In this document: piece after piece, positions 2,909-6,484 of the stretch | Layout of the letters: the number at the start of each line of letters is the position of its first letter | How positions within the stretch are numbered: the first letter of the stretch is position 1 | Origin: a virus | Lineage: Duplodnaviria; Heunggongvirae; Uroviricota; Caudoviricetes | Virus record (IMG/VR): IMGVR_UViG_2734482598_000009 | Direction: 5' to 3' (one strand) | Length of the DNA stretch: 6,484 bases | Translations under genes and position numbers: made by a program | The notes under the pieces: model-generated | Database searches by the model: none | Told to the model about the DNA's origin: nothing | Seen by the model: only the letters and a program-made list of their open reading frames with translations

Positions 2909-3289
2909 ATGACCGAGCGCATAGAATTTGTTTTACCTTACCCGCCGACGGTGAACACTTACTGGCGTCGTCGTGGCAGCACATATTTTGTATCAAAAGC
3001 CGGGGAGCGTTATCGCCGGGCAGTGGCGCTTATTGTTCGCCAGCAGCGGCTGAAATTAAGCCTGTCCGGAAGGTTGGCAATAAAAATTATTGCAGAACCA
3101 CCGGATAAGCGCCGCCGTGACCTGGACAATATTCTGAAAGCGCCGCTGGATGCGCTGACGCATGCGGGGTTGCTAATGGACGATGAGCAGTTTGATGAAA
3201 TCAATATCGTTCGTGCTCAGCCAGTATCTGGTGGACGTCTGGGGGTGAAGATTTATCCCATAATGCTTGAAGGGCAGGTCAAAAAATGA
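2909..3289 (+). CDS. rusA: Crossover junction endodeoxyribonuclease RusA (Holliday junction resolvase)
   Basis: 126-aa product with PDKRRRDLDNILKAPLDALTHAGLLMDDEQF, matching the RusA catalytic core (PDRRRRDLDN...DALT.AG...DD). Start ATG 2909 directly follows the upstream TAA, and stop TGA 3287-3289 overlaps the next ATG. Confidence 0.9.
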   Translation: MTERIEFVLPYPPTVNTYWRRRGSTYFVSKAGERYRRAVALIVRQQRLKLSLSGRLAIKIIAEPPDKRRRDLDNILKAPLDALTHAGLLMDDEQFDEINIVRAQPVSGGRLGVKIYPIMLEGQVKK

Positions 3290-4005
3290 AACTGGAAGAT
3301 TTACCGNNNNNNNNNNNNNNNNNNNNNNNNNNNNNNNNNNNNNNNNNNNNNNNNNNNNNNNNNNNNNNNNNNNNNNNNNNNNNNNNNNNNNNNNNNNNNN
3401 NNNNNNNNNNNNNNNNNNNNNNNNNNNNNNNNNNNNNNNNNNNNNNNGCAGAAATAAAACCGGCAGTGATGCGTATTATGGCTTCGTATGCGTTTGAAGA
3501 TTATGCCCGTAGCGCGGCGAGCAAAAAACAGTGCCCCTGCTGTCACGGAAAAAAATTTATTGAAAGCGAGGTTTTTACAAACAAGATCCAGTATCCGGAT
3601 GGTAAGCCGCCGGTATGGGCAAAGTGTACGAAAGGTGTGTATCCGTCTTACTGGGAAGAATGGAAAAAAGTCAGGGAGGTGGTAAAAGTTGCCTGTCCGG
3701 AGTGTGGCGGAAAGGGTGAGGTTTCCACCGCCTGTAAGGATTGCCGTGGGCGTGGTGTCGCCATTCATCGTGAAGAGTCGGTAAAACGTGGTATGCCTGT
3801 TATCAGAGACTGCCAGCGTTGTGGTGGTCGTGGCTATGAAAGACTACCATCAACGGAGGCATTTAATGCTATATGCGAGGTGACAAACCAGATAACACGC
3901 GCGTCATGGGAAAAAACAGTTAAGAAATTTTATGATGCGCTGGTGACCCGGTTTGATATTGAAGAAGCATGGGCTGAGCGGCAGTTAAAAAAGGTAACTA
4001 GGTAA
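3286..4005 (+). CDS. Late antitermination protein Q (QuuQ-like) with four CxxCxGxG zinc-finger repeats; N-terminal part masked by Ns
   Basis: Lies between rusA and a PR'-like promoter. Contains CPCCHGKK, CPECGGKG, CKDCRGRG and CQRCGGRG. Frame is continuous across the 141-nt N-run (47 codons). Call is positional plus motif; 47 residues are unseen. Confidence 0.65.
   Translation: MKLEDLPXXXXXXXXXXXXXXXXXXXXXXXXXXXXXXXXXXXXXXXXXXXXXXXAEIKPAVMRIMASYAFEDYARSAASKKQCPCCHGKKFIESEVFTNKIQYPDGKPPVWAKCTKGVYPSYWEEWKKVREVVKVACPECGGKGEVSTACKDCRGRGVAIHREESVKRGMPVIRDCQRCGGRGYERLPSTEAFNAICEVTNQITRASWEKTVKKFYDALVTRFDIEEAWAERQLKKVTR
3307..3447. other. 141-nt run of N (masked or unsequenced) inside the Q gene
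   Basis: Literal N characters. Length is a multiple of 3 and the flanking frame is preserved. Confidence 0.95.
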
Positions 4006-4010
4006 CAAGG

Positions 4011-4050
4011 TTGATTTTTCCGGAATCTGTGGTAAATTCGTCATAACGAT
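4011..4050 (+). promoter_or_regulatory. PR'-like late promoter with promoter-proximal sigma70 pause element (qut-type region)
   Basis: -35 TTGATT 4011-4016; extended -10 TGgTAAATT 4030-4038; then CGTCAT followed by AACGATGGG (4045-4053). This parallels lambda PR' TAAATT-TGACTC-AACGATGGG (lambda sequence from memory). Starts 6 nt after the Q stop. Confidence 0.7.
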
Positions 4051-4086
4051 GGGCGTTTTATGCCTGACGTTAGAAGAGTTTCTACA

Positions 4087-4109
4087 ACCCGCCGCCGAGC
4101 GGGTTTTTT
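4087..4109 (+). terminator. Intrinsic terminator downstream of PR' (tR'-like)
   Basis: Stem CCCGC/GCGGG (4088-4092 / 4099-4103) with 6-nt loop, followed by TTTTTT 4104-4109. Confidence 0.6.
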
Positions 4110-4229
4110 ATGACTGAAATCGCGTCAGTACAGTAAACGCGCTGGTGGCGGTGAATACCTGTCTTTCAGCTTGCTGGCTTTTTCGACAAGAGTTATTGGT
4201 GTGTCACGTTAACCGGAAAAGGAAAAGAC

Positions 4230-4427
4230 ATGCTAAAACAGCAGGATATGACAGAAACCGCCAGAGTGGTGTTTAATGAATTAAGCGTTACCGAACCGGC
4301 GACAGTCGGGGAGATAGCGCAGAATACTTACCTTTCACGCGAACGCTGCCAGTTAATACTGACCCAGCTGGTTATGGCGGGTCTGGCAGACTATCAGTTC
4401 GGTTGTTACAGACGCCTTCCGCAGTGA
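4230..4427 (+). CDS. Small helix-turn-helix protein (65 aa), possibly winged-helix PapI/FaeA-like
   Basis: RBS AAAGGAAAAG at 4218-4227, ATG 4230. TVGEIAQNTYLSRERCQLILTQLVMAGL has an HTH pattern. Family assignment is tentative. Confidence 0.55.
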   Translation: MLKQQDMTETARVVFNELSVTEPATVGEIAQNTYLSRERCQLILTQLVMAGLADYQFGCYRRLPQ

Positions 4428-4437
4428 AGGCTTTTTT
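4414..4437 (+). terminator. Intrinsic terminator overlapping the stop of the HTH ORF
   Basis: Stem GCCTTC/GAAGGC (4414-4419 / 4426-4431) with 6-nt loop, then TTTTTT 4432-4437. Confidence 0.6.
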
Positions 4438-4454
4438 ATTTGTGGTAAATGGGC

Positions 4455-4485
4455 GGCTGGTGGGTGTTAGGGGCACCCACCAGCC
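4455..4485. promoter_or_regulatory. Perfect 12-bp inverted repeat separated by 7 bp (GGCTGGTGGGTG-ttagggg-CACCCACCAGCC); candidate operator or RNA hairpin
   Basis: Exact complementarity of 4455-4466 with 4474-4485. No U-tract on either strand, so it is not a canonical terminator. Lies between the HTH ORF and the methyltransferase. Confidence 0.6.
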
Positions 4486-4577
4486 ATCTGCTCATGCGTT
4501 GGGTTCACAAGCAAACCTCAGGCCCACTGCTTTGCGCAAAAGCAGAATGAGCCTATCAGAGACAGGCTTAATGATCC

Positions 4578-5636
4578 ATGCTTAATACTGTAAAAATATC
4601 CAGTTGTGAGTTAATCAACGCCGACTGCCTGGAATTTATCCGGTCGTTACCCGAAAATTCTGTTGACCTGATAGTCACGGACCCGCCGTACTTTAAAGTG
4701 AAGCCTGAGGGCTGGGATAACCAGTGGAAGGGCGACGATGATTACCTGAAGTGGCTGGACCAGTGTCTGGCGCAGTTCTGGCGGGTGCTGAAACCTGCCG
4801 GAAGTCTTTACCTGTTCTGTGGTCATCGCCTGGCATCTGATATCGAAATCATGATGCGTGAACGCTTCAGTGTGCTGAACCATATTATCTGGGCGAAGCC
4901 GTCCGGACGCTGGAACGGATGCAACAAGGAAAGCCTGCGGGCGTATTTCCCCGCCACAGAGCGCATTCTGTTCGCGGAACATTATCAGGGGCCGTATCGT
5001 CCGAAAGATGCCGGGTATGCGGCGAAGGGCAGTGCACTGAAACAGCATGTGATGGCCCCGCTGATTTCTTACTTTCGTGATGCGCGAGCTGCCCTGGGGA
5101 TAACGGCAAAACAGATTGCAGATGCCACAGGAAAGAAAAACATGGTGTCGCACTGGTTCAGTGCCGGTCAGTGGCAGTTGCCGAATGAAAGCGATTATCT
5201 GAAATTACAGGCGCTGTTTGCCCGGGTGGCAGAAGAGAAGCATCGGCGTGGTGAACTGGAAAAGCTCCACCACCAGCTGGTGGATACGTATACCTCACTG
5301 AACCGGCAGTATGCGGAGCTGCTGAGTGAATATAAACATCTGCGGCGGTATTTTGGCGTGACGGTGCAGGTGCCGTATACCGATGTGTGGACGCATAAAC
5401 CGGTGCAGTTCTATCCCGGGAAACATCCGTGCGAAAAACCGGCAGAAATGCTGCAGCAGATAATCAGCGCTAGCAGTCGTCCGGGTGACCTGATTGCAGA
5501 TTTTTTCATGGGGTTGGGTTCGACAGTGAAAGCGGCACTGGCGCTCGGGCGTCGTGCAATTGGCGTTGAGCTGGAGACTGAACGTTTTGAGCAGACGGTT
5601 CGGGAAGTACAGGATTTAGTCAGCCAGAACGGATGA
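4578..5636 (+). CDS. Orphan DNA methyltransferase, N6-adenine/N4-cytosine family, beta-class motif order
   Basis: 352 aa. Motif IV TDPPY near the N-terminus (DLIVTDPPYF) and motif I FxGxGS near the C-terminus (DFFMGLGST). No restriction endonuclease partner in the window. Weak RBS, and a 5-bp hairpin (4550-4568) lies just upstream of the start. Confidence 0.9.
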   Translation: MLNTVKISSCELINADCLEFIRSLPENSVDLIVTDPPYFKVKPEGWDNQWKGDDDYLKWLDQCLAQFWRVLKPAGSLYLFCGHRLASDIEIMMRERFSVLNHIIWAKPSGRWNGCNKESLRAYFPATERILFAEHYQGPYRPKDAGYAAKGSALKQHVMAPLISYFRDARAALGITAKQIADATGKKNMVSHWFSAGQWQLPNESDYLKLQALFARVAEEKHRRGELEKLHHQLVDTYTSLNRQYAELLSEYKHLRRYFGVTVQVPYTDVWTHKPVQFYPGKHPCEKPAEMLQQIISASSRPGDLIADFFMGLGSTVKAALALGRRAIGVELETERFEQTVREVQDLVSQNG

Positions 5637-5676
5637 TATTGAAGAATTAATTACGCGTCGTTATTATGCGGCTCCC

Positions 5677-5752
5677 GGCCCTTTAGCTCAGTGGTGAGAG
5701 CGAGCGACTCATAATCGCCAGGTCGCTGGTTCAAATCCAGCAAGGGCCACCA
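5677..5752 (+). tRNA. tRNA with CAU anticodon, ileX/ileZ-like (probably tRNA-Ile2 read via lysidine; tRNA-Met not excluded)
   Basis: Folds by hand into a cloverleaf: acceptor GGCCCTT/AAGGGCC, D-stem GCTC/GAGC, anticodon loop CTCATAA, T-arm GCTGG-TTCAAAT-CCAGC, encoded CCA. Close to the recalled E. coli ileX sequence. Confidence 0.85.
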
Positions 5753-5795: not shown

Positions 5796-6045
5796 NNNNN
5801 NNNNNNNNNNNNNNNNNNNNNNNNNNNNNNNNNNNNNNNNNNNNNNNNNNNNNNNNNNNNNNNNNNNNNNNNNNNNNNNNNNNNNNNNNNNNNNNNNNNN
5901 NNNNNNNNNNNNNNNNNNNNNNNNNNNNNNNNNNNNNNNNNNNNNNNNNNNNNNNNNNNNNNNNNNNNNNNNNNNNNNNNNNNNNNNNNNNNNNNNNNNN
6001 NNNNNNNNNNNNNNNNNNNNNNNNNNNNNNNNNNNNNNNNNNNNN
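5796..6045. other. 250-nt run of N (masked or unsequenced), probably hiding the rest of the tRNA cluster
   Basis: Literal N characters, flanked by a tRNA 5' fragment and a possible tRNA 3' fragment. Confidence 0.95.
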
Positions 6046-6377: not shown

Positions 6378-6484
6378 TGAGGTGTACTGGCAATAGCGGA
6401 CACTACCATTTGTTCTTTTTTTAAGCAGCCATCTGATGATATTTTTCCCTGAAGGCTGCCGGGGAGATATTCCCCAGACGAGAG
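6378..6484. repeat. Right copy of the 107-bp perfect terminal inverted repeat (partner 1-107)
   Basis: Exact reverse complement of 1-107. On the minus strand it repeats the first 11 codons of the left-end ORF, then diverges and stops after 21 codons. Confidence 0.9.

Follow-up and report, generated by a model that had tools for sequence, protein, structure and literature searches.

Background

M.EcoGII is sold as a reagent and is used for chromatin and RNA footprinting. Together with M.EcoGI (E. coli O104:H4 C227-11; PMC5778455), it belongs to a family of orphan, prophage-encoded methyltransferases that are non-specific, unexpressed in the lysogen, and toxic when expressed (PMC5778455). The substrates of M.EcoGII include duplex and single-stranded DNA, RNA, and hybrids, and an anti-restriction role was proposed for it by Murray et al. 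(2018, PMC5778455). Published homologues annotated as non-specific and lysogen-silent include M.EcoMV of the E. coli ST131 strain EC958 and M.Eco95JB1I/II of O111 STEC. Homologues in O111 STEC with 92.4-93.6% amino acid similarity to M.EcoGI/GII are listed as 'nonspecific' (PMC6602927), and the EC958 homologue, with 99% amino acid identity to M.EcoGI, was silent by RT-PCR (PMC4659465). The same logic (late, toxic, broadly anti-restrictive, and silent in the lysogen) applies to Mom of phage Mu and to the alpha-class promiscuous adenine methyltransferases (Drozdz et al. 2012, as cited in PMC5778455).

Here, we analysed a methyltransferase gene in a 6,484-nucleotide stretch of Caudoviricetes DNA (IMG/VR record IMGVR_UViG_2734482598_000009), referred to as the window. 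The best overall explanation, to which we assign a probability of about 80%, is that the gene encodes a non-specific methyltransferase of the M.EcoGI/GII family that would be made late, under Q control, with an anti-restriction role, and that is most likely silent in its Shigella sonnei host. The gene is of an already known and very common kind and by itself adds little. The new points are a substitution in motif I, Leu313, and a conserved, undescribed leader ahead of the gene.

An orphan beta-class methyltransferase related to M.EcoGII

The following open reading frame was analysed.

4578..5636, + strand: methyltransferase gene, M.EcoGI/GII-family beta-class N6-adenine; ATG start, 352 amino acids

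Its product matched the Pfam family PF01555 (N6_N4_Mtase; E 7.9e-42, aa 29-340) and the PADLOC MTase_II model PDLC03265 (E 4.6e-163). The DPPY motif (motif IV) is located at aa 35-38 (nt 4680-4691, GAC CCG CCG TAC), and FMGLGST (motif I) at aa 310-316 (nt 5505-5525, TTC ATG GGG TTG GGT TCG ACA). Motif IV therefore precedes motif I, confirming the beta-class order reported in the first-pass annotation of this DNA. The nearest solved structures, 9C3U/8URK, M.RsrI, CcrM, M.MboIIA, and M.PvuII, are all beta-class, and they align with the enzyme at its two conserved ends only. They share with it the catalytic Rossmann core, with E values of 1e-14 to 1e-25 that cover the motif IV and motif I segments, whereas all of them are sequence-specific and have a recognition domain without detectable similarity to that of the window enzyme. 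AF2 modelling of the enzyme from an alignment of 22 sequences reached a pLDDT of 55; the model was too poor for evaluating Leu313 or for a fold search, and was set aside.

Pfam and the PADLOC REase models revealed nothing like a restriction enzyme in the window, and the genes called in the source genome up to 10 kb to each side include no nuclease partner. The enzyme is an orphan, as had been claimed; with no endonuclease partner in the regions covered, it does not belong to a Type II restriction-modification system.

We next compared the enzyme with M.EcoGII over its full length. The reference was the machine-read text of a supplementary table (PMC11551740 Table S1), which contains visible OCR slips such as NHHIW for NHIIW. 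Against this text, 324 of 353 aligned positions are identical, and the count becomes 328/352 once three evident slips are mended; because of these slips, we quote the identity as a range of 92-93%. After mending, residues 1-147 are the same as those of M.EcoGII (one slip lies there, at residue 103). The high identity spans the entire length, including the central recognition domain (residues 160-237). [quoted passage not shown] The two enzymes have the same motif order, DPPY ... TRD ... FxGxG, and are of the same length class (349 aa in M.EcoGII vs 352 aa). The window enzyme differs in having three extra C-terminal residues, about 20 substitutions, and Leu in place of Ser in motif I. Its host also differs, being Shigella sonnei with a defective prophage. 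In comparison with M.EcoMV and M.Eco95JB1I/II, Leu313 is the sole difference of consequence. Conversely, the chemistry of Mom is unrelated, and the motif order of the alpha-class enzymes is reversed. Judged by its sequence, the window gene belongs to the M.EcoGI/GII family and carries the family features that can be read at this level, save for the Leu in motif I.

Since the enzyme is 92-93% identical to the non-specific M.EcoGII, it most likely has no sequence specificity. The first-pass annotation had mentioned prophage-borne relatives with relaxed specificity; these exist, and they are close, M.EcoGII itself being among them. Its statement that the sequence does not reveal the target appears too cautious, as the identity to M.EcoGII and the homologues listed as nonspecific suggest that specificity is probably lacking. 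The other option would be a sequence-specific orphan that, like Dam or CcrM, serves the host in epigenetics or regulation. CcrM is likewise an orphan of the beta class, and the approximately 20 substitutions relative to M.EcoGII lie in the linker and recognition-domain region, which speaks for this option. We consider it very improbable, given the identity to a demonstrably non-specific enzyme and the finding that reconstructed family ancestors, of much lower identity and far more divergent than the window allele, remain non-site-specific (PMC11551740). Furthermore, the gene lies behind two late-operon terminators, and lysogen-silent family members would be ill-suited to a housekeeping epigenetic role.

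Late-operon layout

The elements surrounding the methyltransferase gene are as follows.

3286..4005, + strand: Q antiterminator gene, lambda-Q type; partly N-masked, full protein 273 aa
4011..4050, + strand: PR'-like late promoter, read from the sequence by eye, with a putative function
4086..4111, + strand: first intrinsic terminator (tR'-like), hairpin 4086-4105, from the terminator scan
4230..4427, + strand: gene for a 65-aa winged-helix protein (PHROG 331), between the two terminators
4414..4437, + strand: second intrinsic terminator, hairpin 4414-4431, from the terminator scan; overlaps the stop codon of the small ORF
5639..5667, + strand: sigma-70-like promoter, TTGAAG-17-TATTAT, the only site listed by the promoter scan
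5677..5752, + strand: tRNA with CAT anticodon (ARAGORN; Rfam tRNA, 72.5 bits); tRNA-Ile in RefSeq relatives

The Q gene matched Pfam Antiterm (PF03589, E 2.1e-34) and PHROG 127/25523, 'anti-termination protein Q-like'. When its complete sequence of 273 aa was read from L003, the identical unmasked locus, the protein matched the lambda Q structures 7UBM/4MO1 (E 3.5e-41) and showed an inserted DnaJ-like zinc-finger segment. Directly after this lambda-type Q gene, we identified TTGATT (4011-4016), a 16-nt spacer, TAAATT (4033-4038), a further 6 nt, and AACGAT (4045-4050) followed by GGG. This layout resembles that of lambda PR' with its sigma-dependent pause element. The site matches only 8 of 12 consensus positions and was therefore missed by the consensus promoter scan.

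The terminator scan returned four sites in the whole window, against 1.1 expected from shuffles. The first terminator, about 65 nt past the presumed start, has a 7-bp stem with five GC pairs and a T run. By analogy with the lambda 6S RNA or StxS (PMC7547250), it would give a short constitutive PR' transcript. The stem of the second terminator varies by locus with its pairing kept, being GCCTTC/GAAGGC or GCCTCC/GGAGGC in the alignment read by eye. The position of the methyltransferase gene downstream of two terminators and a putative PR', as initially described, is borne out, with the promoter assigned by eye.

The gene also lies ahead of a tRNA cluster, in agreement with the first-pass annotation. 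The cluster order is Ile/Arg(TCG)/Arg(TCT); the two Arg tRNAs are mostly hidden under the N run at 5796-6045 and are visible in L003. Further downstream on the same strand, L003 and L002 carry a holin gene for lysis, whereas an IS element intervenes in S. sonnei. The promoter-like site at 5639-5667 sits between the stop codon of the methyltransferase and the tRNA genes, and in the Stx2 phage Sp5, a tRNA-driving promoter was mapped by dRNA-seq at the equivalent place (PMC7547250).

The methyltransferase gene was matched in 247 phage records, mostly Stx-converting, and is present in 2021 of 5426 complete E. coli genomes. The exact window protein occurs on at least 997 contigs, under Shigella names. 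The allele of the E. coli type strain encodes a protein with 342/352 (97%) identity to that of the window, in the same Q - small ORF - methyltransferase - tRNA arrangement, and intact relatives keep the order Q - small ORF - methyltransferase - tRNA - lysis. The genes of phage 1720a-02, of many Stx2a/2c/2d phages, and of phiP27 show 84-95% nucleotide identity to the window gene. For 1720a-02, the values are 95.2% (nucleotide) and 94.6% (amino acid); its enzyme was named as a close relative of M.EcoGII by Murray et al. (PMC5778455), to which it is 93.8% identical, comparable to the window enzyme. In the Stx phages, the gene occupies the same place as in the window, between Q and the tRNA plus toxin or lysis genes. 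These phages are inducible and carry stx downstream, whereas no toxin gene follows at the window locus and its late region is cut by IS elements.

Proposed mechanism

The enzyme would be a SAM-dependent beta-class N6-adenine methyltransferase of the M.EcoGI/M.EcoGII family which, by homology, is expected to flip out and methylate adenines in any context, in double- and single-stranded DNA and in RNA. In an intact lambdoid phage, its gene would come first among the long genes of the late operon. PR' would fire constitutively, with transcripts ending at tR' or at the second terminator, and after induction only Q-modified RNA polymerase would pass both. Because only the modified polymerase would read through, the toxic enzyme would be made late, during replication and packaging of the progeny DNA. 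The hypermethylated virion DNA would then be shielded in the next host from Type I, II, and III restriction enzymes that are blocked by m6A. We infer the Q dependence and the anti-restriction role from this arrangement. Silence in the lysogen is suggested by the two upstream terminators together with the published data on homologues, and the toxicity of the enzyme would explain both this silence and the double terminator.

Another view is that, instead of protecting duplex DNA, the enzyme acts in vivo on RNA or single-stranded DNA; late phage transcripts, the neighbouring tRNAs, and intermediates of replication or packaging would be the candidates. M.EcoGII does methylate single-stranded DNA, RNA, and RNA:DNA hybrids in vitro, and in Escherichia the gene abuts three tRNA genes. 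However, the activity of M.EcoGII on RNA is approximately 100-fold below that on DNA (PMC11551740 Table S3), tRNAs are linked to the gene only in Escherichia loci, and they seem to be served by a separate promoter. We therefore give this view very little weight, and retain the protection of virion DNA as the preferred role.

A defective prophage in Shigella sonnei

Apart from the two N runs, the window agrees at every position with several Shigella sonnei chromosomes (100% identity). The N runs are not length-preserving; they consist of 141 N and 250 N, each standing for 243 nt. The end of one IS3-family element is present twice, in opposite orientations, at positions 1-107 and 6378-6484. The prophage remnant adjoins ompW in S. 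sonnei, and beyond the left IS3-family copy there are only an IS1, a reversed DUF977 gene, and ompW. No recognisable repressor, cro, N, or replication genes were found within 10 kb in the S. sonnei source genome. The prophage is riddled with IS elements, its lysozyme and head genes are also missing, and further IS copies downstream break up the lysis and tail region. Strain 53G lacks the right-hand IS, indicating that this insertion is recent.

With the immunity and early region missing, Q has no normal route to expression, and for this reason the methyltransferase gene is most likely silent cargo in S. sonnei. The expression during lytic growth that was initially predicted does not apply to the window copy, which lies in an IS-bounded defective prophage lacking the immunity and early regions. 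The place of the early region is taken by IS elements, which also break up the late region, and the Ser313Leu substitution may have weakened the enzyme.

Leu313 in motif I

Residue 313 of the window enzyme is Leu (codon TTG, 5514-5516) and lies between the two glycines of FxGxG. Compared with the canonical motif I, F-x-G-S-G-S/T-T, the F and both G residues are kept, and Ser313 is changed to Leu. Ser occupies this position in 119 of the 120 closest cluster representatives, in all 96 viral-contig homologues, and in all 11 other members of the enzyme's own 90% cluster that had a findable motif (13 read). Among 128 distant representatives, Ser was found in 107, one of S/T/G/A in 123, and Leu in one. 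As Leu313 replaces a near-invariant Ser, the activity of the window allele is not assured. With regard to the motif disruption considered in the first-pass annotation, DPPY and the FxGxG glycines are intact, and the change is limited to the replacement of Ser313 by Leu. In comparison with six close alleles, the Shigella gene has three synonymous and three non-synonymous private codon changes, the latter being S197G, V306I, and S313L. Relaxed selection on the Shigella allele was considered, and six private changes are too few to show it.

These observations raise the alternative that the gene is a relic, in which a leaky, toxic methyltransferase was selected against in a repressor-less remnant and Ser313Leu, an inactivating or weakening change, became fixed in Shigella. 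Leu313 is unique to the window allele among the close and viral-contig homologues examined, small residues rule this position even in distant relatives, and the toxicity of M.EcoGII is documented (PMC5778455); the IS-riddled state of the prophage and the loss of its early, lysozyme, and head genes are also in line with this alternative. On the other hand, the ORF retains its full length, uninterrupted by frameshifts or stops, its DPPY and both FxGxG glycines are unaltered, the private changes give no clear sign of relaxed selection, and the 'x' positions of FxGxG are formally variable. We regard the relic explanation as less likely than not, and favour a family member kept silent by the loss of the route to Q expression. 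Based on the sequence comparison, the Shigella Leu313 allele could nevertheless be a naturally attenuated variant. Fixed in Shigella sonnei, Ser313Leu provides a natural test of the share of the motif-I serine in SAM binding by beta-class enzymes.

Winged-helix gene and leader RNA upstream of the methyltransferase

The AF2 model of the 65-aa protein (pLDDT 91) has the order H-b-H-H-b-b, a plain winged helix. A Foldseek search with this model gave generic winged-helix matches only, and a sequence search of the PDB gave no match. PHROG 331 is without an assigned function, and the database labels for the protein are 'TrmB family' or 'DprA-like WH'.

We compared the neighbourhoods of 80 loci of methyltransferase relatives, taken from one-genome-per-species contigs. 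Homologues of the small ORF were located 76-150 nt upstream of the methyltransferase in about 55 of the 80 loci, ranging from Escherichia to Xenorhabdus and Providencia, and the small ORF was likewise upstream in 99 of 116 viral loci. The Q and nin genes upstream vary among the 80 loci. Downstream tRNAs were present in the Escherichia-type loci only and absent in other genera, and are thus an Escherichia-only addition to the cassette. The parts that stay with the methyltransferase across loci are the small ORF and a leader, whose elements are listed here.

4443..4577, + strand: conserved structured leader of the methyltransferase mRNA, about 135 nt (covariation in a 41-locus alignment)
4455-4466/4474-4485, + strand: leader helix P1a
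4449-4454/4490-4495, + strand: leader helix P1 base
4487-4492/4510-4515, + strand: leader helix P2
4520-4524/4549-4554, + strand: leader helix P3
4527-4533/4539-4545, + strand: leader helix P4
4501-4505/4573-4577, + strand: possible anti-start helix, 93% paired and barely varying

In the alignment of 41 sequences, the four-helix structure had 13 pairs changed on both sides. The controls gave 4.1+/-1.4 such pairs for shuffles, none of 500 reaching 13, and 3-8 for slid partners. One pair appears as C-G, A-U, U-A, and U-G across loci. G-U pairs are frequent and assign the structure to the + (mRNA) strand, and the window leader has a folding z of -4.4. P2 and the P1 base share nucleotides and are therefore mutually exclusive. 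There is no Shine-Dalgarno sequence ahead of the methyltransferase ATG, and the possible anti-start helix would cover the bases right before the AUG.

The covariance model of the leader found exactly one strong match per locus, always abutting the methyltransferase ATG. In viral contigs, the methyltransferase followed the leader pattern 72-73 nt downstream in all 116 testable loci. The mean pairwise nucleotide identity is 78% in the leader, vs 68-73% in the coding sequence and 33% further upstream, and the leader is conserved even at loci without the small ORF. It is probably an undescribed structured mRNA leader that controls the translation or stability of the message for the toxic enzyme. 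The literature searched contained no mention of a leader RNA or a small winged-helix gene before an M.EcoGII-type gene.

These elements may constitute a conserved cassette of Enterobacterales prophages, composed of the winged-helix protein, the terminator, the leader, and the methyltransferase, with its own control at the RNA level; we propose this tentatively, at somewhat less than even odds. In such a cassette, the leader would be a cis-regulatory RNA gating the translation or stability of the methyltransferase mRNA, and the winged-helix protein would work with it, whether by regulating, by reading m6A, or by binding RNA. If the leader or the winged-helix gene does control the toxic enzyme, this would explain how phages keep it off, and could provide tight expression control for M.EcoGII-based tools.

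The leader had no Rfam match on the + strand of the window at E <= 0.1, and none at E <= 1 in five diverse loci. Two sub-threshold Rfam hits, P26 on the - strand (4454-4518, E 0.097) and isrK (1281-1362, 25.7 bits), were taken as chance. Short ORFs also occur in the leader; a 7-aa ORF, MGGWWVL, is frequent, and a second often ends at the methyltransferase ATG. Since these ORFs keep neither start, frame, nor stop from one locus to the next, the peptide-coding interpretation of the leader was dropped in favour of RNA structure.

Leader RNA and genes adjoining the methyltransferase

The gene for the M.EcoGI/GII-family beta-class methyltransferase (MTase) is set among the following features, given in window coordinates.

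1-107 and 6378-6484: end of an IS3-family element, in inverted copies that bracket the whole segment
947-1272, +: hok/sok type I toxin-antitoxin locus (Rfam and Pfam)
1850-2908, +: DUF968 protein gene of the nin region, a conserved lambdoid gene
3286-4005: Q gene, by alignment to lambda Q (8607-9428 in L003, the identical unmasked locus)
3307-3447 and 5796-6045: runs of 141 and 250 N
4230-4427, +: winged-helix protein gene, 65 aa (PHROG 331, annotated as of unknown function)
4443-4577, +: structured leader of ~135 nt, directly 5′ of the MTase start
5514-5516, +: MTase codon 313 in SAM-binding motif I, TTG (Leu)
5639-5667, +: sigma-70-like promoter (TTGAAG-17-TATTAT), directly 3′ of the MTase stop codon
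6017-6199, +: match to the STnc100 sRNA family (69.8 bits versus a gathering score of 47)

The leader occupies the same position in the 80 fetched loci encoding MTase relatives, L009-L088, and across these loci and the window its sequence is more conserved than the MTase coding sequence. Its helices are supported by covariation, and two of the pairings are mutually exclusive. The leader and the MTase gene are strictly linked in both genome and viral contigs. No Rfam family matched the leader, and no Shine-Dalgarno sequence was found on the plus strand of 4443-4577.

The 65-aa winged-helix gene is kept directly 5′ of M.EcoGII-family genes across the Enterobacterales, and would be transcribed jointly with the MTase gene from the upstream predicted PR′. 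Possible roles for its product are regulation, recognition of m6A, and RNA binding.

At MTase codon 313, relatives carry TCG or TCA (Ser), in contrast to the leucine codon of the window. Among the homologues examined, the Leu313 allele is confined to Shigella-named records, and the exact Leu313 protein occurs in at least 997 contigs.

tRNA cluster, Q, and flanking elements

The first tRNA lies 10 nt 3′ of the sigma-70-like promoter, which fits the tRNA promoter mapped at the equivalent position in the Stx2 phage Sp5 (PMC7547250). The STnc100 match, whose 5′ end falls under an N run, follows the tRNA cluster, as it does in E. coli relatives.

Each N run replaces 243 nt of real S. sonnei sequence. 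Since the runs do not preserve length, window coordinates 3′ of each are offset from the genome, and the runs distort the reading frames and genes that they interrupt, namely Q and the Arg tRNAs. Q comprises 273 aa, compared with 207 aa in lambda Q; its two ends, residues 1-113 and 183-273, align with the lambda protein, and the extra length is an insertion of ~70 residues with DnaJ-type CxxCxGxG zinc-finger repeats.

Within the hok/sok locus, sok scored 112 bits at 947-1122 (Rfam), and a Hok/Gef ORF spans 1060-1272 (Pfam, E = 3e-23). The C-terminus of the DUF968 protein gave a weak HNH-nuclease-like match (HNHc_6, E = 1.9e-6), but the protein is not the MTase's restriction partner. A stop or frameshift breaks its gene in S. 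sonnei 53G (L007).

The two IS3-family ends flank the nin, Q, MTase, and tRNA genes in a composite-element-like arrangement. The right-hand copy is missing from 53G, and the insertion at this end is therefore polymorphic.
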